A stretch of 64,000 bases of DNA, taken from the NCBI GenBank assembly GCA_964386675.1, contig CAYLTB010000001.1, forward strand, positions 2,353 through 66,352, given 5' to 3'. The notes below the pieces were generated by a model that ran no database searches, was not told the DNA's origin, and saw nothing but the letters and a program-made list of their open reading frames with translations. Of this stretch, positions 3,106 to 58,396 are shown piece after piece. The stretch comes from an uncultured Verrucomicrobiota bacterium. Lineage in GTDB: Bacteria > Verrucomicrobiota > Kiritimatiellia > PWTM01. Positions within the stretch are counted from its first letter, which is position 1; the number at the start of each line of letters is the position of its first letter. Position numbers and translations under genes: made by a program.

Positions 3106-4468
3106 GGTGTACACCCGGATCGAACGCATCGCCGGCAACGTCGTGACCGTCCGCGCCAGCGATGTGTCCTATCGCGAGCTGGCGCAGATCGAGACCCGCT
3201 ACGGAACGTCGCTCGCACAGGTGATCCGCCTCGAAGGCGGCCGCGTGGACCTCCAGGTTTTCGCCGGCGGCCGCGGCATCTCGACCGACGCGCACGTGCG
3301 ATTTTTGCGGCATACGATGGAGGTTCCGTTCTCCGATGCGCTGCTCGGCCGCGTGTTCACCGGCAGCGGCGCCCCGCGCGACCGCGGCCCGGCGATCCAG
3401 GAGAACCTGATTCCCATCGGCGGGCCGTCCGTCAACCCGGCCAAGCGCATCATTCCGCGCCGCATGGTCCGCACGGGCATCCCGATGATTGACGTGTTCA
3501 ACACGCTGGTCGAGTCGCAGAAGCTGCCGATCTTCTCGATCGCCGGCGAGCCGTATAACCCGCTGCTGGCGCGCATCGCGCTGCAGGCGGAGGTGGACCT
3601 CATCATCCTCGGCGGCATGGGGCTGAAGCACGACGATTACCTGTTCTTTCGCGACCTGCTCGAGGAGCAGGGGGCGTTGTCCCGCTCCGTGCTGTTCATC
3701 CACACCGCGGCGGATCCGACGGTGGAGTGCCTGCTGGTGCCGGATATCTCGCTGGCCGTCGCCGAGCAGTTCGCGCTCCAGGGCAAGCGCGTGCTGGTCC
3801 TGCTGACGGACATGACGAATTTCGCCGACGCGCTCAAGGAGATCGCGATCACGATGGAGCAGATTCCGTCGAACCGCGGCTATCCCGGCGACCTCTACAG
3901 CCAGCTCGCCGCCCGCTACGAGAAGGCGGTGGACTTCGACACGGCCGGCTCGATCACCGTACTGGCCGTCACCACGATGCCCGGCGACGACGTCACGCAC
4001 CCGGTGCCGGACAACACCGGCTACATCACCGAGGGGCAGTTCTACCTGCGCCACGGCCGCATCGAACCGTTCGGCTCGCTCAGCCGCCTGAAGCAGCTCG
4101 TGAACAACCGCACGCGGGAAGACCACCGGACCATCATGAACACGATGATCCAGCTCTACGCGGCCTACCGAGAGACGCTCGAGAAGCAGTCCATGGGCTT
4201 CCGGATGAGCGCGTGGGATAATAAGTTGCTGAAATATGGGCTGCGATTCGAGAACGAGATGATGGACCTCTCGGTCAACATCCCGCTGGAAAAGGCGCTC
4301 GATCTCGGCTGGCAGATTTTGAGCGATTGTTTCGAACCGGAGGAGACCGGCATTCCGACAAAGCTGACGGAGAAATTCTGGCCGAAACCGCCGTCGTTAC
4401 CGCGAGGGAATCATGAGCCGTCCACGGCAACCGTCGGCCCGGAAGGACCGACCCCCCGAATGGAGTAA
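3098..4468 (+). CDS. atpB: V-type ATP synthase subunit B
   Basis: [20 protein letters not shown]... is a V/A-ATPase B (non-catalytic) subunit. Its start overlaps the atpA stop by 8 nt (ATGCATAA). Confidence 0.9.
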
Positions 4469-5125: not shown

Positions 5126-6876
5126 TCGTCCCGATGAAACGGGTGACGGTGCTGTGTCTGGACTCGGCGCGCGAGGCGACCCTCGAACACCTCCGCGAGC
5201 TGGGGGTGCTCCACCTCGAACACGTCCGGCCCCCGGAGAACGATTCGGTGGAGGCGGCCCGCAAGGATCTGGCGTACTACCGGCGCGCCCTCGAGGTGCT
5301 TCCCGAGCGCTCCGCGGCCGCGCCGTCGGGCCGCCCGCCGCTGGAGATCGTCCGGGCCATCTGGGACTGCATCCATGAGCGCCAGAACCTGATGGAACGG
5401 CTGGAGACGCTGCGTCACGAACGGCAGCGCATCGCGCCGTTCGGCGACTTCGATCCCGCGGCTGCGCGCGCGCTGGCGGGCAAGGGGTTGAGCGTTCGAC
5501 TCTATCAGGTCGAGCCGAAGCAGGAACCCGTGGCGCCGCCCGGGACGGTGCTGCGGGTGCTGGGCCGGACCCGGGAGGCGACCTATTTCGCCGTCATCGG
5601 GCCGGCGGACGCGCCCGCACCGGCGGGCGCCGAAGTGCGGCTGCCGGAGATCGGGCTGGGAGAAATGGACCGGCGAATCGCCGAAGCGGAGTCGGCGCTG
5701 GAACGGAACCGGCTCGCGCTCGAGGTGTTTGCCGGCGACCGCGCCGCGGTGGCGGCGCAGGCCGCGGAGGCGGAAGATCGGATGGCGCTGCTGCAGGCGG
5801 CGGCCGGCATGGGCTCGGCGCAGCGTGTCGCCTGGTTGCAGGGGTATTGCCCCGAGGACAGCGCCGATTGTATCCGGCAGAGCGCCGCACAGGGCGGCTG
5901 GGGCGTGCTGATCGAGACGCCGAAGGACGGCGAGCCCGTTCCGACCCTGATCCGCAATCCGCGCTGGGTCCGGCCGATTCAGGCGATCTTCCGGCTGGTC
6001 GGCATTCTCCCGGGCTACCGCGAAATCGATATCAGCGCCGTGTTCCTGCTGTTCTTCAGCCTGTTCTTCGCCATGCTCGTCGGCGACGCGGGCTACGGCG
6101 TCCTGTTCCTCGGCCTGACCGTCTGGGCACGGAAGCGGAGGGGCGGCCGGCCGAATCCGGCAATCGCGCTGATGCTGATCATGAGCGTCTGTACGATCGT
6201 CTGGGGTATGCTGACCGGGACCTGGTTCGGCCTGACGTGGCGCCCCCTCGTGCCTTCGCTGACCCGAAACGAGACCGTGATGGGGCTGTGCTTCCTGATC
6301 GGCGCGGTGCAATTGAGCATCGCGCACGTCTGGAATATGGCGCGCCAGCGGCGCTCGCCGCAGGCGTTCGCGCAGCTCGGCTGGCTGGCCATCACGTGGG
6401 TGATGTATTTCGCGGCCAACGCGATGGTATTGAACCGGCCCTTTCCGCGCTTCATGCTGGGCGCGCTGGCGGGCGGGGTGCTGCTGATCGTGCTTTTCAT
6501 GACGCCGGTCAAACAGTTGAAGACCGAGTGGTTCAATCATGTGATGCTGCCGCTGAACCTCGTCAGCAGCTTCGTGGACATCGTTTCGTATATCCGCCTC
6601 TTTGCGGTGGGCACGGCGACCGTGTCGGTGGCGCAGGCCTTCAACAACATCGCGCTGGGCAGCGGCGGCCCGATCGGACTGGGCCGCGGAGTCGCGGCGG
6701 CGCTGATTCTTTTTGTCGGCCACGCCTTGAACCTCGTACTGGCCGGCATGGGCGTGATCGTCCACGGCGTGCGGCTGAACACGCTGGAGTTTTCGGGGCA
6801 CCTGGGGATGCAGTGGACCGGACTGCCCTACCGGCCGTTCGCGCGGGCGGCGGGCGCGTCCGAGGACAAGATATAG
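5122..6876 (+). CDS. atpI: V-type ATP synthase subunit I (a subunit)
   Basis: An ATGA overlap joins it to atpD. The N-terminal half is soluble and the C-terminal half is polytopic membrane protein (FFAMLVGDAGYG... multiple TM segments), as expected for subunit I/a. Confidence 0.85.
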   Translation: MIVPMKRVTVLCLDSAREATLEHLRELGVLHLEHVRPPENDSVEAARKDLAYYRRALEVLPERSAAAPSGRPPLEIVRAIWDCIHERQNLMERLETLRHERQRIAPFGDFDPAAARALAGKGLSVRLYQVEPKQEPVAPPGTVLRVLGRTREATYFAVIGPADAPAPAGAEVRLPEIGLGEMDRRIAEAESALERNRLALEVFAGDRAAVAAQAAEAEDRMALLQAAAGMGSAQRVAWLQGYCPEDSADCIRQSAAQGGWGVLIETPKDGEPVPTLIRNPRWVRPIQAIFRLVGILPGYREIDISAVFLLFFSLFFAMLVGDAGYGVLFLGLTVWARKRRGGRPNPAIALMLIMSVCTIVWGMLTGTWFGLTWRPLVPSLTRNETVMGLCFLIGAVQLSIAHVWNMARQRRSPQAFAQLGWLAITWVMYFAANAMVLNRPFPRFMLGALAGGVLLIVLFMTPVKQLKTEWFNHVMLPLNLVSSFVDIVSYIRLFAVGTATVSVAQAFNNIALGSGGPIGLGRGVAAALILFVGHALNLVLAGMGVIVHGVRLNTLEFSGHLGMQWTGLPYRPFARAAGASEDKI

Positions 6877-6921: not shown

Positions 6922-7386
6922 ATGGATGCAACGGCAATGCAACTGTGGGGCCAATTTGGTGCGGCGGCGGCGCTGGGGCTTTCGGCGGCCGGCTCGGCGC
7001 TCGGCGCGGGTACGGCGGGCATGGCGGCCATCGGCGCGTGGAAGAAGTGTTACGCGCAGAGCAAGGCGGCGCCGTTCATTCTCGTCACCTTCATCGGCGC
7101 GCCGATGTCGCAGACGATCTACGGCTTCATCCTGATGAACAATATGCTCGGGAAGCTGGCCGCCGCCGGCGCGGAATCGCTGCCGAAAATCGGGCTCATG
7201 CTGGGGGCGGGGCTGCTGGGCGGACTCGGCATCGGCGTCTCCGCCTGGTTCCAGGGCAAGGCGGGCGCCGCAGGGGCCGATGCGCTGGCCGAGACCGGCC
7301 AGGGCTTCGGCAATTACCTCATGACGCTCGGCGTGGTCGAGACCGTCGCGCTGCTCGTGATGGTGTTCACGCTGATCAGCCTGTAG
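6922..7386 (+). CDS. atpK: V-type ATP synthase proteolipid subunit K/c
   Basis: A 154-aa, Gly/Ala-rich, four-helix proteolipid is encoded. A strong SD (AAGGAGAAG) lies 8 nt upstream of the ATG, and it is the last gene of the operon. Confidence 0.85.
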   Translation: MDATAMQLWGQFGAAAALGLSAAGSALGAGTAGMAAIGAWKKCYAQSKAAPFILVTFIGAPMSQTIYGFILMNNMLGKLAAAGAESLPKIGLMLGAGLLGGLGIGVSAWFQGKAGAAGADALAETGQGFGNYLMTLGVVETVALLVMVFTLISL

Positions 7387-7478
7387 GCCGCCGTTCACGG
7401 CCCGGCCAGCGCCGCGCCCGCGCGCGCCGGCGGGGGGACAGCGTCGGCGCTGTGCCGCCGCGGAAAACGCGGCCCGCG

Positions 7479-7546: not shown

Positions 7547-7993
7547 ATGCCCTTCGAGCAAACACGCGACATCCTGGAAAAGGCCCGCGGGTTTCACCGC
7601 GCTTTGGCCGCCTATTTCGAGCGGCTGGAGCAAATCGCGCCCAAAGAACGGGTGCGCATGGTCCTGGAATATCTGCGGCGTCACGAGCAGGCCATGGACG
7701 AGGAGCTGAAGTCCTTTGAGGCCCATGCCGCGCGGCCGGTGCTGGAATCCTGGTTCAAGTACGCGCCGGAGTCCGTGCAGGAGGCGATCCAGCGGCTCGA
7801 AATCCGCGCCGATATGACCGTCGAGGAAGTCGTGGACATCGCCCTGAAGCTGGACGAGCAGTTGCTGGCGCTCTACGGTCATGCCGCGCGCCTGGCGCCC
7901 GACGCCGCGGTGCGCGAGCTGTTCTCGAACTTGCATCGAGAGGGATTGCGCGAGCGCGCGCGGATTCTGCGCGCCGTGAACGAGCCGGACTGA
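7547..7993 (+). CDS. hypothetical protein
   Basis: A 148-aa ORF (MPFEQTRDILEKARGFHRALAAYFERLEQ...) with its own promoter. No family was recognised. The first ATG of ORF 7496..7993 lies inside the promoter, so 7547 is preferred. Confidence 0.5.
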   Translation: MPFEQTRDILEKARGFHRALAAYFERLEQIAPKERVRMVLEYLRRHEQAMDEELKSFEAHAARPVLESWFKYAPESVQEAIQRLEIRADMTVEEVVDIALKLDEQLLALYGHAARLAPDAAVRELFSNLHREGLRERARILRAVNEPD

Positions 7994-31208: not shown

Positions 31209-32576
31209 TCAGCCGGACGCCGGCAGTTCGGACGGCGGAATCGCGATATCCCCCGCATCGTCGAGCGCGTAACCCTGCCGCCGGACAATCTCGGGACCGG
31301 GCGCAAAATCGTCTCCCACCGCGCGCAGCCGTGCCGCCAGCCGGGCGTCCAGGCGGGCGATCAGCGGCGCTTGCGCGGGGTCGGCGATCAGATTGCGCTG
31401 CTGCCAGGGGTCGGCCGGATTGTCGTACAGCAGCCAGGGGCCTGCCAGCGAGCGTGCGTAGGTGTGGCGTTCATTGTGCAGCCCGCGGTATTCGCGTCCG
31501 CCGTTTGCGTAGCTCCATTCGTGGAACGGCACATAGAGGGCCAGCAGCGCTTCCGTGACGGGCGAGGGGGCGCCTTCCAGGATCGTGCGGCTGAAATCCC
31601 GGCCCTGAACCGTGTCGGGAACCGGCGCGCCGCAGAGCGCCAGCAAGGTCGGCATCAGATCCGGCGCGTCCACCGGCGAGGAGTCGGTCCGGCCGGTGAC
31701 GCCTTCGGGATGCGCCACGAGCAGGGGAATGCGGATGGACTCGGCCCAGGGCTTCTGTTTCCGGAACTGGCCCTGGCTGCCGAGCATGTCGCCGTGGTCG
31801 GACGTGAACACCACGATGGTGTCCCGATCGCGGCCGCTCGCGGCGAGGGTTTCGAGCAGCCTTCCGAACGCCGCGTCCAGCGCCGAGCCGTGCGCGTAGT
31901 AGCCCGCCAGCTGCCGGCGCGCCTCCTCCGCGGCCGAGTCCGGCACGTTGGGGGGCAGGCGGAGCCGCCGCGGATCGTGCAGGGACGCGTACGGCTCCGG
32001 CGCGCCGCCATAAGGGGAGTGCGGCGGTCCCCAGGAGAGAAACAGCGCGAAGGGCCTGTCGCCGGTCGCCTCCCGCAGGTAGCGGCAGGCCTCATCCGTC
32101 TGCGCGTCGGCGTCGTATCCCGCCCAGCGGCGGGGCCGGGGGTCGTCGCCGAAGTAGTAGTGGGATTCGCGGTAATGATGCGAGCACTCGAATCCCTTCC
32201 ACCAGTCGAAACCAAGCCGCCGCTCGGGCGGCACGAACGCCTTCCGCCCATGCCCGTCCAGGTGCCACTTGCCGATGTAGGCGGTGCGGTAGCCGGCGGC
32301 GCGCAGGCTGTCGCCCAGGTAGGGTCCCGCGTACCGCTCGCGCAGGCACTGGTCGTTGACCATTATGCCATGCCGGATCGGATATACGCCGGTCATCAGC
32401 GAAGCCCGGTACGGACTGCACACCGGACAGCCGGAAACCGCATTCGTGAAATTCAGGCTCCGCGCCGCGAAGGCGTCCAGGTGCGGCGTCACGGCGTTCG
32501 GGTCGCCCGCGTATCCGAACGCCTGCGCACGCCACTGGTCGGCAAAGACGAAGAGCAGATTGTAGTGGTCAGCCAT
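31209..32576 (-). CDS. sulfatase (formylglycine-dependent arylsulfatase family)
   Basis: NLLFVFADQWRAQAFGYAGD... carries the CSPYRASLMTG sulfatase signature (C-x-P-x-R) and GKWHLD. The start is chosen at MADHYNL at 32576 (the ORF extends to 32672). No signal peptide is evident. Confidence 0.8.
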   Translation of the reverse strand: MADHYNLLFVFADQWRAQAFGYAGDPNAVTPHLDAFAARSLNFTNAVSGCPVCSPYRASLMTGVYPIRHGIMVNDQCLRERYAGPYLGDSLRAAGYRTAYIGKWHLDGHGRKAFVPPERRLGFDWWKGFECSHHYRESHYYFGDDPRPRRWAGYDADAQTDEACRYLREATGDRPFALFLSWGPPHSPYGGAPEPYASLHDPRRLRLPPNVPDSAAEEARRQLAGYYAHGSALDAAFGRLLETLAASGRDRDTIVVFTSDHGDMLGSQGQFRKQKPWAESIRIPLLVAHPEGVTGRTDSSPVDAPDLMPTLLALCGAPVPDTVQGRDFSRTILEGAPSPVTEALLALYVPFHEWSYANGGREYRGLHNERHTYARSLAGPWLLYDNPADPWQQRNLIADPAQAPLIARLDARLAARLRAVGDDFAPGPEIVRRQGYALDDAGDIAIPPSELPASG

Positions 32577-33297
32577 GGATATCGTACGGCCCGCCGGCGG
32601 TGCCGACACGTTCCCGCGACGTCGTCTGCCCGTCAATAAAATATCGGGTTCGCCGCTCTCTTTTTTCAACATTTCCCCGGCATCGGCGAGACCGTTGACT
32701 CAAGCCGCCGCCGGCACACGTCGCGCCATTCCGGCCATCGTGGCCGGACGTCGCTCCCGAAACACGTCGAAAGAATGCGAAGAGAACGCCGGAAGCCGCA
32801 GACGTAACGTCGAATCGCCGCTGTTGGGAGTCGGTGTTGTTCCGGCACGGCGATATCTGTCGGCGGATCGTTCGCCGACGCACGTTGGAATATCGGGCCG
32901 ACACGCGGGCCGGTTTTTCGGAAGCATCGCCGACGCGCGACCGCAGCATGACCCGGCCCATGCCGGATGTTGAATGGCAACGTTATCGTTCCGCCCTCCA
33001 TCCCCGGCGCCGCTCCGGGCTCGATGTCCATGGGGGGCGCTCGGAGGAGTTGCCCAGGCTGCGCGTCTGGGCTGAAGAGTGGTCGTCACATCCGGCGCCC
33101 GCGTTGCAGCCGGAACGTCGGTGGAACCGCCGGTGGAATGGCAATGGCGGGTGTTGCGACTTTCCCGAAAAGCGACGGGACTGCCGGGACCACCTTCGAT
33201 CCTTCAGCTGCCGCTGTCGGCGGGCCGGCACCGCAATCCGCTTGTCAATACGGCGGCAGGGACGCATCCTGCGCACGTCCGGCGGAGACCCGCCATC

Positions 33298-35383: not shown

Positions 35384-35429
35384 TTCCAAGCCTTGGAAAA
35401 TGGCGGCGATTTTCTTCCAAGCTTTGGAA
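35384..35429. repeat. tandem pair of 15-bp palindromes TTCCAAGCCTTGGAA / TTCCAAGCTTTGGAA, 16-nt spacer
   Basis: Copy 1 is at 35384-35398 (7-bp arms) and copy 2 at 35415-35429 (6-bp arms). Copy 2 is nested in a larger hairpin whose stems are AATGGCGG (35399-35406) and CCGCCATT (35430-35437). The element lies between the convergent 3' ends of the phosphoesterase and gspF genes. The same element recurs at 55769-55814. Confidence 0.7.
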
Positions 35430-35523
35430 CCGCCATTGCCCCATCCGCCCGCGATCGGCGGCCCGCCGGTCGCCGATCGCCCGGCCTCAAGCGTCGATCG
35501 CCGCGCCTCCCGCCGCGTCCCGT

Positions 35524-36837
35524 TCAGTTCGTCTTGAGGCCGCTGGTCAGGTCGAATACGGCGGTCAGCATGCTGATGGCGACGAAGCCGACGAACACCG
35601 CGACCAGCAGGATGAGGACCGGCTCGATCAGCGTCGTGAGCACGCGAACTCGGCGCTCCAGCTCGGCATCGTACCGGCGCGCAATGCGTTCGAGCGCGCC
35701 GACGACGTCGCCGCTCTCCTCGCCCACGGTCAGCATGTCGGTCAGCAGCGGCGGGAAGATGCCGCCGGCGGTCAGCGGCCCGGAGATCGAGGCGCCGTCG
35801 GTCACGCGCTCGCGCGCGTCCTTCACGGCATCTGCGATGATGCGGTTGCCGAGGGTGGATTCGACGATGGCCAGGGCGCGCAGCACGGGCACGCCATTGG
35901 CCAGCAGCGCGCCGAGGGTCCGGGCGAATTGTCCGAAGGCCGCGGCCTGAACGACGGGTCGAAACAACGGCAGCCGCAGCAGGGCGCGGTCGCGCCACCG
36001 GGCGCCGGCGGGGGTCCGCAGCATGCGGCGCGCGGCCGGCACGGCGACCGCGAGGGCGATGGCCATCCACCAGCCGTGCCGCGCGAGCGCGCGGCTGACG
36101 GCGATCAGGGCGCGCGTCGAAGCCGGCAGCGCGCTGCCGAGCTCGGCGAAAATGGCCGTGAAGCGCGGCACGACGAAAATCAGCGTGAAAACCAGCGTCG
36201 CGGCGCCGACGAGCAACACGAAAAGCGGATACGCCAGCGCCGTGACCGCGCGTTCGCGCGCGGCGGCGACGCGCTCATAGTGCTCGGCCAGACGCGACAG
36301 CGTCTCGCCCAGCCGGCCGCTCTCCTCGCCGGCGCGGACCATTGAGGCGAAGAGCGGTGGGAAGATGGCGGGTCGGCGTTCGAGCGATTCGGAGAGGCTC
36401 GCACCGCGGACGATTTCATCGCGCAGTTCCTCAAACAGCGTCGAGCGCGCGCGGTCTTCACGACGCTGGGCCAGCGTGTGCAGGGCGCGGCCGAGCGTCA
36501 TGCCCGCGCCGAGCAGGTCGCTGATTTCGCGCGTAATCATGGAAAGTTCGCCCGGTTTCAGGCGGCGGCCTCCGCGCACGACGGCCCCGTCGCCGGGCCG
36601 CGCGGCCGCCGTTCGGGGCGCCGCCGGCAGTCCGGCCGCGCGGGCAGACAGGGCGGCGGGCGTGCCCGCGGGGGCGGCCGAGGCGGTCGTTGCGCCGACG
36701 GACGATTCGCGGATGTCGATCGGCGCCAGGCCCCCGCTCTGCAGGCGGCGCAGCGCGGCAGCGCGGTCGGGGACCTCGAGCACGCCCTCCACCCGCTCGC
36801 CGGTGCGCGACCGGGCGCTGTAGCGAAAGCGCGGCAC
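35524..36837 (-). CDS. gspF: type II secretion / type IV pilus inner-membrane platform protein (GspF/PilC family)
   Basis: Two T2SSF repeats and the N-terminal consensus (ERVEGVLEVPDRAAALRRLQSGGLAPIDI) are present. The GTG start at 36837 lies 2 nt after the gspE stop. The ORF extends to 36924. Confidence 0.8.
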   Translation of the reverse strand: MPRFRYSARSRTGERVEGVLEVPDRAAALRRLQSGGLAPIDIRESSVGATTASAAPAGTPAALSARAAGLPAAPRTAAARPGDGAVVRGGRRLKPGELSMITREISDLLGAGMTLGRALHTLAQRREDRARSTLFEELRDEIVRGASLSESLERRPAIFPPLFASMVRAGEESGRLGETLSRLAEHYERVAAARERAVTALAYPLFVLLVGAATLVFTLIFVVPRFTAIFAELGSALPASTRALIAVSRALARHGWWMAIALAVAVPAARRMLRTPAGARWRDRALLRLPLFRPVVQAAAFGQFARTLGALLANGVPVLRALAIVESTLGNRIIADAVKDARERVTDGASISGPLTAGGIFPPLLTDMLTVGEESGDVVGALERIARRYDAELERRVRVLTTLIEPVLILLVAVFVGFVAISMLTAVFDLTSGLKTN

Positions 36838-36839
36838 GC

Positions 36840-38558
36840 TCAGGTCTCCGTCAACGCCTCGTCTTCTTCGGAGACGCGGAGCACTTCCTCGATCGTCGTG
36901 ACCCCGTCCAACACCTTGCTCCACCCGTCGTGCCGCAGCGTGCGCAGGCCGTGCCGGAGGGCTTCCGCTTTGATCGCGTTGCTGGAGGCGCGGGCGACGA
37001 CCAGGGCGCGGACCGCGTCGTTGACCGTGAGTATTTCGTAGACGCCGGTGCGGCCGCGGTAGCCGGTGCCGCGGCAGGCCTCGCAGCCGGCCGCTTCGTA
37101 GATCGTCCGGCCAGTCAAGCGCGCCCGGGGGAACCCGACTTTTTCGAGCAGCGCGTCATCCGGCATCCAGGGGCGCCGGCAGGCGGCGCAGAGACGGCGC
37201 ACCAGCCGCTGCGCGACGATGGCCTCGATGGACGACGCCACGAGAAACGGTTCGATGCCCATGTCCACCAGGCGCGTCACGGCGCCGGCCGAGTCGTTCG
37301 TGTGCAGCGTGCTGAAGACGAGATGGCCGGTCAGCGCGGCGCGGATCGCGATCTCCGCGGTTTCCTTGTCGCGAATTTCGCCGACCATGATGATGTCCGG
37401 GTCTTGCCGGAGGATATGCCGGAGGCCCACGGCGAAGGTGAAGCCGATCTCGGGCTTGACCTGGATCTGGTTGATGCCGGGCATTTCGTACTCGATCGGC
37501 TCCTCGATGGTCAGGATGCGCTTGTCCACCGAGTTGATGGTGTGGAGCCAGGCATAGAGCGACGTGGACTTGCCGGAACCGGTGGGGCCGGTCACCAGCA
37601 GGATGCCGTGCGGCCGGCTGATCAAGCGCTTCAACAGCGCCTCGTCCTCGGCGCAGAGCCCCAGTTTGTCCATTCCGAGCAGCCCGCTGCGCCGCAGCAG
37701 GAGGCGCAGACTGACGCTCTCGCCGTACACGGTCGGCATCGTCGAGACGCGTACGTCGAGATCCTCGCCGCGGATGCGCAGTCCGATGCGGCCGTCCTGC
37801 GGCAGGCGTTTTTCGGCAATGTCCATGCCGGCCATGACTTTGACGCGGGAGATGATCGCCGACTGAAACCGCTTCAACTGGGCCGGAACGGGCGTCGGAT
37901 GAAGCACGCCGTCAATCCGGTACCGCACGCGCAGGTCGTTTTCCTGCGGCTCCAGGTGGATGTCCGTGGCGCCGTCCTGGTAGGCTTCCCAGACGATCTG
38001 GTTGACGAACTTGACGACGGACGCCTCCTGGTCGAGATCGTCAATGTTCTTGTTGAACAGCTCCGCCTCCGGCGCGATTTCGAGCGGCTGCGCCTGGTCC
38101 TGGATGATGGCGTCCAGCGTGTCGGCGCCGACGCCGTAGAGCCGCTTCGCGGCTTTGGCAATCTCGGCGGCCGCGGCGAGGGCGAATCGAACCTCGCGGC
38201 CGCCGGCCAGCCGCAGCGCATCGGCGAGGCCGGGCCGGAACGGGTCCGCCACGACGACGCGCAACGCGTCCTCCTCGATGGCGACGGGGACGACGTTGAA
38301 GTGAAACACGGTTTGGGTCGGCAGCAGCGCCAGCGTTTCGCGGCTGGGACGGATCTCCTCGGCGCGGAAAAAGGGAATTCCCATGGCCGCGGCGAGGCCG
38401 CGGAGGAAGTCCTCCTCCGGCGCGAAAGGACTTCGGACGACCGTCTCGACGACGGTCTGTCCCTTCGCGCGCGCCAACTGCAGAATCTCCTCCGCCCGCG
38501 CCCGGTCGAAGAGTCCCGTTGCCGCCAAAAGTTCCGCCGGTCGTGGTCTGCCAGGCAT
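36840..38558 (-). CDS. gspE: type II secretion / type IV pilus assembly ATPase (GspE/PilB/MshE family)
   Basis: A T2SE N-terminal domain is followed by a RecA-like ATPase with Walker A GPTGSGKST, Asp box, Walker B and tetracysteine-like CAAC...C motif. The ATG at 38558 (MPGRPRPAELLAATGLF) was chosen within ORF 36840..38723. Confidence 0.85.
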   Translation of the reverse strand: MPGRPRPAELLAATGLFDRARAEEILQLARAKGQTVVETVVRSPFAPEEDFLRGLAAAMGIPFFRAEEIRPSRETLALLPTQTVFHFNVVPVAIEEDALRVVVADPFRPGLADALRLAGGREVRFALAAAAEIAKAAKRLYGVGADTLDAIIQDQAQPLEIAPEAELFNKNIDDLDQEASVVKFVNQIVWEAYQDGATDIHLEPQENDLRVRYRIDGVLHPTPVPAQLKRFQSAIISRVKVMAGMDIAEKRLPQDGRIGLRIRGEDLDVRVSTMPTVYGESVSLRLLLRRSGLLGMDKLGLCAEDEALLKRLISRPHGILLVTGPTGSGKSTSLYAWLHTINSVDKRILTIEEPIEYEMPGINQIQVKPEIGFTFAVGLRHILRQDPDIIMVGEIRDKETAEIAIRAALTGHLVFSTLHTNDSAGAVTRLVDMGIEPFLVASSIEAIVAQRLVRRLCAACRRPWMPDDALLEKVGFPRARLTGRTIYEAAGCEACRGTGYRGRTGVYEILTVNDAVRALVVARASSNAIKAEALRHGLRTLRHDGWSKVLDGVTTIEEVLRVSEEDEALTET

Positions 38559-54701: not shown

Positions 54702-55382
54702 CGCGTTCTCCGGGTTCGATGCCGTTCGCACGGTAGCAATAACGCGACCCGCGCGTCAAACGCGTGCGGCGGCCCGAGCGCGGTCAATTACAGCGCCGCC
54801 AAGCGCGGGCTCATCGGCCTGACCAAGTCCCTGGCCGTCTGGGGCGCGCCCTATGGCGGCCGGGCCTGCTGCGTAGCGCTCGGCCCGGCGCTCACGCGGG
54901 CCGCCATGATCGACATCATGGGGGACTTGTACGATCCCTCGCCGCTGGAAATCACGCGCCATCCCGACGCCATCGACCGGCAGAGGCGCCTGATCGACCG
55001 CATTCATGCCCTGGGCGCGGAGGTGGTCATGTCGTCGCACCTGTCGTGTCTGCCGACGACGGAACAGGTGGCGGAACACCTGCGGGCCCTGCGGGCGCGC
55101 GGTCCCGACGTGGTGAAGATCGTCACGGGGGGGGGCGATACGGAGGGCGAACGGACGGAGGCGCCGCGGACCACGCTGGTCCAGAAGCGCGAGGTCGGGA
55201 TGCCGTTCATCCACTTCCGCAACGGCCGGTTCAGCCGTACGCACCGCTGCTTCGGACCGGCGCTCGGCCTCTCGATCGCGTTCGCCGTCTACCGCTGCGA
55301 ACCGCGCTACGGGATGACGCCGCCGACGATCCGGGCCATGAGGGCGGTGTTGGACAACCTCCACTGGAAGAACAGCGGATGA
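54681..55382 (+). pseudogene. type I 3-dehydroquinate dehydratase (AroD)-like ORF, apparently degenerate, with SDR-like fragment at 5' end
   Basis: The C-terminal ~150 aa align with AroD (AEVVMSSHLSCLPTTEQVAEHLRALRARGPDVVKIVT matches [38 protein letters not shown]). The Schiff-base Lys of the SMAKTG motif is replaced (HFRNGRFSR). The N-terminal 60 aa instead resemble the YxxxK region of an SDR (VNYSAAKRGLIGLTKSLA). The 5' end overlaps the convergent ThyA-like gene. Confidence 0.4.
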
Positions 55383-55768: not shown

Positions 55769-55814
55769 TTCCAAGGCTTGGAAGTCGGCCCGCCCGTTTT
55801 TCCAACCGTTGGAA
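55769..55814. repeat. tandem pair of 15-bp palindromes TTCCAAGGCTTGGAA / TTCCAACCGTTGGAA, 16-nt spacer
   Basis: Copy 3 is at 55769-55783 and copy 4 at 55800-55814, both with perfect 7-bp arms. Spacing and architecture are identical to the pair at 35384-35429. The element lies 9 nt past the malQ stop in a convergent intergenic region. Confidence 0.7.
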
Positions 55815-55822
55815 GCCGCAGG

Positions 55823-57373
55823 TCAGCCGGCCGGCGGCGCGCGCCCGGCCGCGCGCGTGAGGCGCGCGAGCCGCGTCTTCGCCGCGGCGGTGAGCTGCGG
55901 CCACGCGAACCGCCACTGCCAGTTGCCCTGCGCCGTGCCGGGCGTATTCATCCGCGCCTCCGACCCCAGTGCGAGAACGTCCTGCAGCGGCGCGATCGCC
56001 AGCCGCGCGGGAGAGCGCCACGCGAGTTCGACCATCCGCGCGGGCGCCTTCGCCGGGTCGCGTCCCAACAGCGCCTCCGCCGCCCGCCGCGCCCGCGCGA
56101 CTTCGCCCTCCGCCGACGCGGCCGACGCCTCGAACCAGCCGCGCGCCGTGTCGTTGTCGTGCGTGCCCGTGTACACGACGCTGTTCTCGCGGAGGCGCTC
56201 CAGGCGGTCCGGCCGCTCCGCCAACTCGCCGAAGAGGAACTGCAAAACCTCCATGCCCGGCAGACCGAAGCGGTCGCGCAGGGCGCGGACCTCGTCGGTT
56301 ATGATGCCGAGGTCCTCCGCGAGGATCGGCAGCCGGCCGCCGAGTGCGTTGCGCAGCGCCGCCAGTAGCGCGTCGCGCGGGCCGGCGACCCAGCGGCCGC
56401 GCTCCGCGGTCGGTTCGGAGGCCGGGATTTGCCAATAGTCCTGCAAGCCCCGGAAGTGGTCGAGGCGCAGCCAATCCGCCCACGCGAGCGCGCGCCGTAC
56501 GCGGGCGATCCACCAGCGATACCCTTCGGCGGCGTGCGCCTCCCAGCGGTAGAGCGGATTGCCCCAGCGCTGGCCGGTGGTTGAGAAATAGTCCGGCGGA
56601 ACGCCCGCGACCACGGTCGGATGCCCTCGATCGTCCACGTGAAACAGGTCGCGGCGCGCCCAGACGTCTGCGCTGTCGTGGGCGACGAAGATGGGCAGAT
56701 CGCCGATCAGCCGGATGCCGAGCCGGGCGGCGGTGCGGCGCAGCGCCGCCCATTGGCGATCGAAGAGGAACTGGAGGATTTCCTCGCGGCGGATCTCTCG
56801 ATCGAGCCGCCGTCGCGCGGCGTCCAGCGCGTCCGGCTCTCGTTGCGCCAGCGGCGCCGGCCAGTCGGTCCAGGCCCTGCCGCCGTGCTCGGTCTTGAGC
56901 GCCATGAACAGCGCATAATCCGGCAGCCAATCCGCCTGCCGGCGACGGAAGGCGGCGAACCCGCGCTGCCGAGCGGCCGACGCCGCGGAGAACCGGTCCG
57001 CGGCCGCCTGCAGTCGCGCTCGGCGCGCCGGCAGGATGGCGCCGAAATCCACCCGCGTCGCATCGGTGATCGGAAAGCCTTGCAGGTCGCCGGCGGTCAA
57101 CCAGCCGTCGCGGCGGAGGTCATCGAAGCTGATCAGCAACGCGTGGGCGGCGAACGTCGAAAGGCTCTGGTAGGGTGAGTCGCCGTAACCGGTAGGGCCG
57201 AGCGGCAGAAACTGCCAGTATCGCTGGCGCATCGCCGAGAGCGCGCGCAGCCAACGGCGGGCATGCGGACCGATCTCGCCGATGCCCCAGGGGCCCGGCA
57301 GCGAGGTGACATGCAGCAGTAAGCCGGCGGCGCGCTCCGGCCGCGCGGCGCGGCCGGAGCGCTCAATCGTCAT
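55823..57373 (-). CDS. malQ: 4-alpha-glucanotransferase (amylomaltase, GH77)
   Basis: LLLHVTSLPGPWGIGEIGPHARRWL...YWQFLPLGPTGYGDSPYQSLSTFA is the MalQ N-terminal signature. GH77 catalytic region motifs follow. The start is at MTIERS (57373), and the ORF extends to 57481. Confidence 0.88.
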   Translation of the reverse strand: MTIERSGRAARPERAAGLLLHVTSLPGPWGIGEIGPHARRWLRALSAMRQRYWQFLPLGPTGYGDSPYQSLSTFAAHALLISFDDLRRDGWLTAGDLQGFPITDATRVDFGAILPARRARLQAAADRFSAASAARQRGFAAFRRRQADWLPDYALFMALKTEHGGRAWTDWPAPLAQREPDALDAARRRLDREIRREEILQFLFDRQWAALRRTAARLGIRLIGDLPIFVAHDSADVWARRDLFHVDDRGHPTVVAGVPPDYFSTTGQRWGNPLYRWEAHAAEGYRWWIARVRRALAWADWLRLDHFRGLQDYWQIPASEPTAERGRWVAGPRDALLAALRNALGGRLPILAEDLGIITDEVRALRDRFGLPGMEVLQFLFGELAERPDRLERLRENSVVYTGTHDNDTARGWFEASAASAEGEVARARRAAEALLGRDPAKAPARMVELAWRSPARLAIAPLQDVLALGSEARMNTPGTAQGNWQWRFAWPQLTAAAKTRLARLTRAAGRAPPAG

Positions 57374-58214
57374 GCGCGAGGCCCGTGATGACGTAGCCGC
57401 CCGACCGTTCGTCGGACTCGAGGGTGAGCAGGCCTCGGCGCTGCGCTTCTTCGAGCAGCGCGTTGAACGAACGAAACCCATGGTAGGCTTCGTTGAAGTT
57501 CGGGCGTCGGCGCTTCAGCGTCTGCTTGACCATCGAGCCCCAGACCCGCCCGTCGCCGCCGCGGTCGGCGAGCAGCTCCTCGACGACTTCGATCACATGC
57601 GCGATGCCTTCGCTGGCCGGGTCGCCGTCCGCGGCCGGCGTCTTCGCGGCCGCCGCGGCGGGCCGGGCGGCTGCGGCGGCCCCGGCGGCCGCCGGCGCGC
57701 GAGTCCGGCGCGGTTTGCGCGCCGCGCTGGAGGCGCGCGCGCGGGCGAGGTCGTCGTAGTAGATGAACTCGTCGCAGTTCGCGATCAGCAGGTCGGAGGT
57801 CGAGTTCTTCACACCGACGCCGATCACGGTCTTGTTGCTCTCGCGCAATTTGCTCACCAGCGGCGAGAAGTCGGAGTCGCCGCTGATGATCACGAAGGTC
57901 CGTACGTGCGGCTTCGTGTAGCAGAGGTCCAGCGCGTCCACGACCAGCCGGATGTCGGCGGAGTTCTTGCCGGACTGGCGGACGTGCGGCACGTCAATCA
58001 GTTCGAAAGACGCTTCGTGCATCGCGGCCTTGAACTCCTTGTAGCGCGCCCAGTCGCAGTAGGCCTTCTTGACGATGATGGGCCCCTTCAGCAGCAGCTT
58101 TTCGAGAACGAGCCGGATGTCGAAGCGCTCGATCTTCGCATCGCGCACGCCGAGCGCGACGTTTTCAAAATCGCAGAAGACCGCCATGCTGCCGGAGTCG
58201 GTGATTTCGCTCAT
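57363..58214 (-). CDS. NYN (LabA-like) nuclease-domain protein with C-terminal OST-HTH/LOTUS domain
   Basis: MAVFCDFENV...KAYCDWARY...IISGDSDFSPLVSKLRESNKTVIGVG is the NYN/LabA fold. The C-terminal ~80 aa (VWGSMVKQTLKRRRPNFNEAYHGFRSFNALLEEAQRRGLL) are OST-HTH-like. It overlaps the malQ start by 11 nt. Confidence 0.7.
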   Translation of the reverse strand: MSEITDSGSMAVFCDFENVALGVRDAKIERFDIRLVLEKLLLKGPIIVKKAYCDWARYKEFKAAMHEASFELIDVPHVRQSGKNSADIRLVVDALDLCYTKPHVRTFVIISGDSDFSPLVSKLRESNKTVIGVGVKNSTSDLLIANCDEFIYYDDLARARASSAARKPRRTRAPAAAGAAAAARPAAAAAKTPAADGDPASEGIAHVIEVVEELLADRGGDGRVWGSMVKQTLKRRRPNFNEAYHGFRSFNALLEEAQRRGLLTLESDERSGGYVITGLAHDD

Positions 58215-58396
58215 GGGTGTTATCCTTCCCGCGGCAGGATGGCGCGGGATGCGCCCGGGCCGCAACGCCCTCCATCCTAACGCATCGGCGGAGAAACACA
58301 ACGCCGGAGCGCCGACCGTTGCGCGCGCGCGTGCGCTCCGCTATCGTGGGCGCCGCCGCCGCGCCGGCGTTTTCACCGCCGCGGCCGCCCGATGCC

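Follow-up and report, generated by a model that had tools for sequence, protein, structure and literature searches.

A clade-specific family of short, helically phased palindromic repeats in Kiritimatiellia: possible sites of a dimeric DNA-binding protein

Two intergenic regions of the window, which is the whole 64,000-nucleotide stretch of DNA analysed here, each carry a pair of 15-bp palindromes, and the question raised by this locus is whether the pairs are a local peculiarity, a signal at gene ends, or members of a wider family, and what could recognise them. The window contained exactly four matches to TTCCAA-N3-TTGGAA, which started at positions 35384, 35415, 55769, and 55800 and formed two pairs with a gap of 16 nt and a centre-to-centre distance of 31 bp in each. 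The initial annotation had described all four palindromes at these coordinates, including the second occurrence at 55769–55814, and its description was accurate. Dinucleotide-preserving shuffles of the window gave a mean of 0.05 matches and never gave four. When up to three mismatches were allowed, additional matches were obtained at chance level only, and the window therefore contains no further copies. The features are as follows (those listed without + or − are unstranded).

35384–35398, copy A palindrome 1, TTCCAAGCCTTGGAA (TTCCAA-GCC-TTGGAA), which extends to TTTCCAAGCCTTGGAAA
35399–35414, copy A spacer of 16 nt, AATGGCGGCGATTTTC, whose first 8 nt pair with 35430–35437
35399–35406, 5′ arm of the copy A outer stem, AATGGCGG, an 8-bp stem that encloses palindrome 2
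35415–35429, copy A palindrome 2, TTCCAAGCTTTGGAA (TTCCAA-GCT-TTGGAA)
35430–35437, 3′ arm of the copy A outer stem, CCGCCATT, peculiar to copy A
55769–55783, copy B palindrome 1, TTCCAAGGCTTGGAA (TTCCAA-GGC-TTGGAA)
55784–55799, copy B spacer of 16 nt, GTCGGCCCGCCCGTTT
55800–55814, copy B palindrome 2, TTCCAACCGTTGGAA (TTCCAA-CCG-TTGGAA), 9 nt past the malQ stop codon
33079–35355, +, neighbour of copy A, metallophosphoesterase-domain (Metallophos) protein, stop 28 nt ahead of copy A
35524–36924, −, neighbour of copy A, T2SS protein F (T2SSF, gspF), stop 94 nt past copy A
54906–55382, +, neighbour of copy B, DHquinase_I-like gene (partial profile match), stop 386 nt ahead of copy B
55823–57373, −, neighbour of copy B, 4-alpha-glucanotransferase (GH77, malQ)

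Pfam matches and the called genes of the window placed both copies between convergent genes, as the initial annotation had noted: copy A between the Metallophos and T2SSF genes, and copy B between the DHquinase_I-like and malQ genes. The larger 8-bp stem (AATGGCGG/CCGCCATT) that it had reported around palindrome 2 of copy A was real but is not a feature of the family described below. A complementary run of 8 bp at the outer-stem position was found in only 4 of 165 pairs, copy A included, which ruled out the outer hairpin as a family feature, and the other three pairs had self-complementary A/T flanks repeated by tandem duplication.

The surroundings of the two copies gave several separate observations. 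The DHquinase_I-like product (158 aa, 54906–55382, + strand) covers positions 103–212 of a 230-position profile only, and the gene may therefore be truncated. The spacer after this gene is unusually long (440 bp), with copy B at its end. An NYN-domain gene (57363–58301, − strand) and the start of malQ share 11 nt (57363–57373), an overlap that suggests the two are translationally coupled in an operon. A sulfatase (31209–32672) and a gspE-gspF pair, which are typical for the Kiritimatiellia clade, are likewise encoded in the window.

We scanned one representative genome per species for a pattern of two palindromes 6–36 nt apart. At least 120 stretches in at least 48 assemblies matched, far above chance, and the claim that the element is a repeated one was thereby borne out. 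Among the matches listed, the named assemblies were nearly all Kiritimatiellia, Lentisphaerae, or Verrucomicrobiota MAGs (labelled Kiritimatiellia, Kiritimatiellae, Kiritimatiellales, Tichowtungia, Pontiella, Lentisphaerae, Verrucomicrobia, or Verrucomicrobiota), and the carrier genomes had GC contents of 44 to 73 % and originated from lakes, rumen, sediments, and groundwater; one MAG among these matches gave at least 23 separate 8-kb stretches. The 860 kb of loci listed contained 394 exact palindromes (0.02 expected), 83 sites with one mismatch (0.7 expected), and 44 sites with two mismatches (14 expected), and perfect sites made up about 78 % of all sites in these loci. No site was found in a control set of 80 metagenome loci from other taxa (398 kb), which were picked solely for encoding a malQ homologue. 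The best named matches of the window GspE fell in the Kiritimatiellia clade, too. A family of short palindromic repeats, interspersed in the genome and restricted to this clade, exists, and both sites of the window are ordinary representatives of it.

A search of the whole window against Rfam at gathering thresholds gave no match, and a search around copy A at permissive E-values gave one chance-level match only (E = 1.4). Full-text literature searches, directed at the motif and at repeats in Kiritimatiellia, found no earlier description of the family. Kiritimatiellia are abundant polysaccharide degraders of sediments, lakes, and rumen, and their molecular genetics is almost nil. The motif is usable as a sharp taxonomic marker for binning, and it is one through which gene callers extend ORFs.

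Several matches stood apart from the main set. The IMG/VR contigs L128, L132/L136, L133, and L140 carried typical TTCCAA-KSM-TTGGAA pairs or arrays with 31-bp spacing and a C/G centre, and could derive from phages or prophages of the clade or be host fragments filed as viral. The viral contigs L127, L129, and L130 (~48 % GC) carried pairs spaced by 28 bp whose centre is A/T, and L138 (7607–7846) carried another palindromic repeat that matched the pattern, GGAGTTCCAAACTTTGGAACTCCGT, with 36–60 bp spacing; each of these looks like a different family. In L032, L039 (RUG11506, labelled Prevotellaceae, 44 % GC), and L041, units of the TTCCAAGCNTTGGAAC type formed direct arrays with a 21–22-bp period and conserved linkers; this is probably another repeat family from beyond the main clade, unless the bins are mislabelled.

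The full unit in the loci listed was tT-TTCCAA-K-S-M-TTGGAA-Aa. The central base was C or G in 99 % of the sites of these loci, the positions beside it (7 and 9) were symmetric, being K (T/G) and M (A/C), and two further bases on either side kept to the symmetry (T at −2 and −1, A at +1 and +2), which brings the unit to about 19 bp. The T-runs to which the initial annotation had drawn attention on the 5′ side of the palindromes are real and family-wide, and they are matched by A-runs on the 3′ side. Clusters contained one unit in 41 cases, two in 113, three in 21, four in 10, five in 2, and six in 3, and their density in the loci listed was about one per 12–30 kb. Start-to-start spacings were 21–22, 31–32, and 41–43 bp, with a few at 52, 62–63, and 73 bp, and the spacer gaps were 6–7, 16–17, or 27–28 nt. 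A Rayleigh test restricted to the 85 neighbour pairs outside the selection made by the scan pattern gave R = 0.85 at a period of 10.5 bp, with a mean phase of 0.0 bp. The spacing was genome-specific: bin-1020 had 32 bp in all but three of its 34 pairs (31/34), and 31 bp was the distance in all pairs of RZZM (14/14), JAQVYB (6/6), and CAZBEO (5/5). From the fifth base past the palindrome until the next unit the information was about 0 bits in every genome, and these results indicate that the length of the spacer is kept and its sequence is not. The central triplet was also genome-specific, with TCA/TGA in 76 of 77 sites of bin-1020, GCC/GGC in 25 of 39 sites of bin-260, and ACC in 4 of 4 sites of DAOLCW. 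When orientation was assigned by the central C or G, neighbouring units had the same orientation in 124 pairs and the opposite orientation in 74. The sequence and symmetry of the unit are conserved and its spacing is phased: a site of ~19 bp is letter-perfect across a class with 44–73 % GC, and the helical register is kept whereas the positions of the copies are not.

The genes in the loci were called with a codon-bias caller, which was checked in the window against Pfam and the called genes; this caller is rough and over-extends 5′ ends through arrays. The arrays were overwhelmingly intergenic, and most of the seemingly intragenic cases were over-extended 5′ ends of ORFs, in which all three frames were used; a peptide-coding repeat was ruled out by this use of all frames. 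Both neighbours were called for 108 arrays, and 72 of these arrays lay between co-directional, 19 between divergent, and 17 between convergent genes (67/18/16 %), against a background of 67/17/16 % for all intergenic regions. The link to convergent gene ends proposed in the initial annotation was not supported, since the enrichment that it had suggested looking for was absent across the 108 arrays, and 3′-end enrichment was ruled out in the same way. As the context of the family equals the background, the convergent place of the window copies is not a family property. In co-directional spacers there was no preference between the stop side (41) and the start side (31). The central base showed no strand asymmetry (C:G 108:112 at starts and 100:88 at stops), and the flanking T-runs showed neither asymmetry relative to the strand of the neighbouring gene nor an excess on the sense side of upstream genes. 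No gene family recurred beside the arrays among 659 predicted proteins, whether of transposases, of autoregulated binding proteins, or of another kind. The neighbour genes were mutually unrelated (secA, aminoacyl-tRNA synthetase genes, era, murF, sulfatases, and secreted proteins), and in many cases an array lay 0–30 nt ahead of a housekeeping gene, for instance secA, an aminoacyl-tRNA synthetase gene, or era. The family is independent of gene context and of strand.

An element that terminates transcription or stabilises RNA had also been proposed, and more generally UUCCAA-NSN-UUGGAA hairpins could act at the RNA level as terminators, 3′-end stabilisers, or protein-binding sites. Many copies must be transcribed because they lie 0–60 nt from start or stop codons, the palindrome forms the same hairpin on both strands, and the minus strand of copy A offers the 8-bp outer stem followed by UUUU. 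However, this outer stem is unique to copy A, RNA from either strand of the two window copies folded no better than shuffles (z −0.2 to −1.2), terminator scans found no terminator-like site at either window copy, and Rfam contained no matching family. A scan for sigma-70 promoters likewise found no sigma-70-like site at the two window copies. Only two of the six stem pairs are G-C, T-runs were not commoner on the sense side of upstream genes, and the sites were neither enriched at gene 3′ ends or in convergent spacers nor depleted from divergent ones. In degenerate array members 43 changes left bases unpaired, 18 gave G.T pairs, and only 4 were compensated, and a 10.5-bp phasing is meaningless for RNA. 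We consider an action as RNA highly improbable, and the idea of a terminator or RNA stabiliser was not supported.

In regard to the stability of the copies, copy B was identical, palindrome 2 included, in four independent assemblies of the same population. Relatives at greater distance gave a different result. Locus L227, whose GspE is 86 % identical, has the same convergent gspF/Metallophos arrangement, and its syntenic spacer is without copy A; four relatives found via GspE contained 0 sites in 38 kb. The syntenic loci L009 and L026 (~75 % nucleotide identity) have one array that is present in a single genome only and another that occupies the same position in both but is degenerate and has a different spacing. 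The malQ relatives in metagenomes were uninformative on the conservation of position because they were at most 54 % identical. The copies of the family thus turn over. Two features of these loci were seen besides. The gspF/Metallophos spacer of L227 (7470–8100, 631 bp) contains an unrelated AT-rich insert (39 % GC) bounded by inverted repeats TATCTCACACCTTCGAA / TTCGAAGGTGTGAGATA, with arms at about 7649 and 7779, which may be a small mobile element. L009 carries a (TTTCAAR)4 heptamer tract (~7665–7700) where L026 has a TTCCAA pair (2170–2215).

In genomes with mixed central triplets, neighbours shared the triplet in 48 cases against 32 expected, a number reached in 0 of 2000 shuffles, and they did so mainly in the same orientation; spacers were similar within arrays of L040, L024, L012, and L085. 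These results indicate that tandem duplication contributes, although 54 of the 102 neighbour pairs in the mixed-triplet genomes differed in triplet; local tandem duplication accounts for part of the arrays. Single copies inside genes were far above chance and occurred in all three reading frames. Because the copies are quickly gained and lost and yet are exact, some copying process must also operate, and exact copies without fixed positions, uniform dialects, and intragenic singles together indicate that new exact copies are actively generated. The uniform centre triplets and the unfixed positions point to active copying or drive, which simple selection for binding does not explain. By our own estimate the site holds about 27 bits of information, far above the need of a protein with hundreds of sites, and this excess together with about 78 % perfect sites suits propagated repeats better than transcription-factor sites.

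A generation of copies of this kind would suit a REP-like selfish or non-autonomous mobile palindrome, in which a hairpin of ~19 bp would be recognised single-stranded by a transposase or nuclease and copied into intergenic DNA, duplication would subsequently enlarge the arrays, and a role for the host, if any, would come second. Its high copy number, perfection and excess information, triplet dialects, positional turnover between relatives, intragenic singles, indifference to gene context, and tandem duplication (with the similar spacers noted above) agree with this, and strand symmetry alone is compatible with RNA or single-stranded DNA because either strand of a perfect palindrome folds into an identical hairpin. 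A GTAG/CGTC tag defines REPs, RAYT association is a further defining mark of GTAG REPs, and untagged REP-like families exist (PMC3733652); a BIME consists of regularly spaced REPs in alternating orientation (PMC2817692). We searched for the tags within 8 nt of 397 sites and found GTAG at 3 and CGTC at 9, below the random-position control of 5 and 21, and the flank profile was symmetric T/A only. The spacing is regular as in BIMEs, but the orientation does not alternate. The sole RAYT gene in the 120 loci listed, that of L085, has a GC-rich repeat of its own on both sides, unrelated to the family, with a TTCCAA array ~1.8 kb from the ORF, and on this small sample of one gene RAYT mobilisation of the family was rejected. 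Beyond ~4 nt of flank nothing was common to the copies, even within one genome, and pairs are therefore not copied as units; exact distances of two, three, or four turns are not predicted by hairpin transposition; stem changes were uncompensated; and the arms are identical across a whole class of 44–73 % GC, whereas REPs are usually species- or genus-specific. What stands of the REP-like claim of the initial annotation is a small dispersed palindrome; the tag, the alternating orientation, and the RAYT association do not stand, so that the family is REP-like only loosely. We regard mobility of the REP type as possible but doubtful.

The RAYT locus itself (L085:6159–7420, Kiritimatiellae MAG STF2_14, JAQVYB010000016) is a classical REPtron. 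It encodes a RAYT-like Y1 transposase with the HUH motif HVHFF, which was detected by phmmer (E = 2e-7) with an E. coli RayT sequence as the query. Arrays of a ~38-bp GC-rich repeat, unrelated to the TTCCAA palindromes, flank the gene on both sides, and the repeat core CGCGCCCTCGCGCCGCA lies at 6264–6553 and 7192–7406.

Two further explanations would assign the motif to a known type of recognition. If it resembled a DNA uptake signal (DUS/USS), a competence receptor would favour it and it would accumulate by biased uptake and recombination. Many near-perfect copies, clade-wide conservation with genome dialects, the lack of orientation and context bias, the intragenic excess, and the positional turnover speak for this, as does the abundance of Type II secretion and type IV pilus-like genes in these genomes and in the window. 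Uptake signals can also carry helically phased A/T tracts, as in the Haemophilus USS. They are, however, asymmetric 9–12-mers that occur about once per kb and largely as single copies, whereas the unit of the family is strictly palindromic, of dimer type, with a centre fixed at 3 bp; clusters occur about once in 12–30 kb, and most units stand in phased pairs and arrays, which an uptake bias does not require. To our knowledge, competence has not been documented for the Kiritimatiellia clade, and an uptake signal seems unlikely by a wide margin. The sites could also be operators of a specific transcription factor regulon, e.g. of the Lrp/AsnC type, since 15-bp 6-3-6 palindromes in clusters with two- to three-turn spacing resemble Lrp-family operators (PMC2995911) and in L066 an array precedes a highly conserved Lrp/AsnC gene by ~118 nt. 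Five of five orthologous Lrp/AsnC loci (L221–L225) were nevertheless without any site, and the lead to autoregulation given by L066 was therefore rejected. The array-flanking genes showed no functional or family enrichment, the sites are equally present in convergent spacers, and Lrp sites are AT-rich at the centre and degenerate, the opposite of the family (PMC2995911). A specific regulon is largely refuted already, and we consider it very improbable.

The Lrp/AsnC regulator of these loci is a protein of 159 aa (L221–L225:1740–3700; L066:~3362–3846) whose conservation in Kiritimatiellia is exceptional (73–94 % identity among the best 120 clusters). An Aminotran_1_2 gene always follows 3′ of it in the five loci with called genes (L221–L225). 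A sequence common to several of the regions upstream of it, AAAGGCTGGACGCC...TGTTATAC, could be the regulator's own operator or promoter.

We tentatively favour, with confidence a little short of even, the explanation that the units are same-face sites for a putative dimeric DNA-binding protein with an architectural and not a gene-specific role, in addition to a process that generates copies. The unit would most likely act as duplex DNA, and a conserved sequence-specific protein would occupy each unit with one dimer. Units two, three, or four helical turns apart would place the dimers on one face of the helix, where they could bind cooperatively and form a nucleoid-associated, architectural, or insulator-type complex; we infer the dimer, the cooperativity, and the architectural role. 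Identical arms, a constrained centre, and helical spacing fit recognition of one face of the duplex by a symmetric dimer. The conservation of sequence and not of pairing (4 compensated against 43 unpaired changes) and the independence of the element from context, together with its symmetry relative to transcription, argue for such a protein. Dimers of the Lrp family provide a precedent: the palindromic sites that they bind come in clusters, two or three helical turns apart and on one face (PMC2995911). Against a protein, the lone candidate binder, the Lrp/AsnC gene of L066, failed at the 5/5 siteless orthologous loci, and a tightly bound protein 0–30 nt upstream of housekeeping genes might interfere with them. 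The initial annotation had offered tandem sites for a dimeric protein about three turns apart as one option, and this part is retained on the phasing, the uncompensated conservation, the symmetric flanks, and the constrained centre; the part on convergent genes and terminators is not.

A letter-perfect site, set in helical register in numerous intergenic regions although its single copies do not keep their places, in combination implies a conserved, abundant factor that recognises this DNA sequence, which nobody has described, and probably an active creation of copies. More speculatively, and in our view rather unlikely, the family may belong to a genome-wide Kiritimatiellia system, of which two forms can be conceived. 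A chromosome-organising or insulator protein would assemble on in-phase arrays in a large share of intergenic regions, or a ruler-type mechanism would write short exact palindromes at fixed helical distances and leave the intervening DNA uncopied. We know of no described bacterial counterpart of either form.

The Lrp/AsnC (FFRP) operators resemble the family in their 13–15-bp palindromes with a 3-bp centre, clustered on the same face at two or three turns, and DNA wraps round oligomers of these regulators (PMC2995911). The family likewise keeps to one helical face at two or three turns (21–22 and 31–32 bp, plus 42–43 bp). Lrp operators are AT-rich at the centre, degenerate, and located at the promoters of a regulon, typically with the regulator's own gene among its targets, whereas the family has a G/C centre and about 78 % perfect sites in all types of intergenic region, and the regulator's own gene lacked the site in all five orthologous loci (0/5). 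REP and BIME elements are like the family in being small, high-copy extragenic palindromes that occur as singles, pairs, and regular arrays, are occasionally inserted into ORFs, and turn over. The general criterion for REPs is 20–40 bp, more than 100 copies per genome, and an extragenic location, and the unit of the family is about 19–23 bp long and overwhelmingly intergenic. REPs are imperfect palindromes of 20–40 bp, whereas the family is perfectly symmetric over ~19 bp, untagged, without alternating orientation, and without a tie to the RAYT gene of the clade; its arms are conserved class-wide and not in one species, and it is AT-rich in GC-rich genomes and not depleted from divergent (promoter) spacers. 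CRISPR arrays have 23–47-bp repeats, unique 21–72-bp spacers, few loci per genome, and cas genes; the family has a core of 15–19 bp, gaps of 6–7, 16–17, or 27–28 nt, arrays of 2–6 units, and many loci per genome. The DUS of Neisseria and the USS of Pasteurellaceae share with it many exact copies, conservation at the family level, dialects, and independence of context and orientation, but they are asymmetric, much denser, and without phased arrays. The sites parS, NBS, and matS (GTGAC-RNY-GTCAC) are high-information palindromes read by the organising proteins ParB, Noc, and MatP, respectively. A chromosome has between a few and a few dozen of these sites, isolated and with regional bias, whereas the family has many sites, mostly in phased pairs and arrays, with fast positional turnover. 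These sites and the family have in common near-perfect palindromes, wide taxonomic conservation, and independence of the function of nearby genes, and a dimer-type geometry is shared by matS (5-3-5) and the family (6-3-6).
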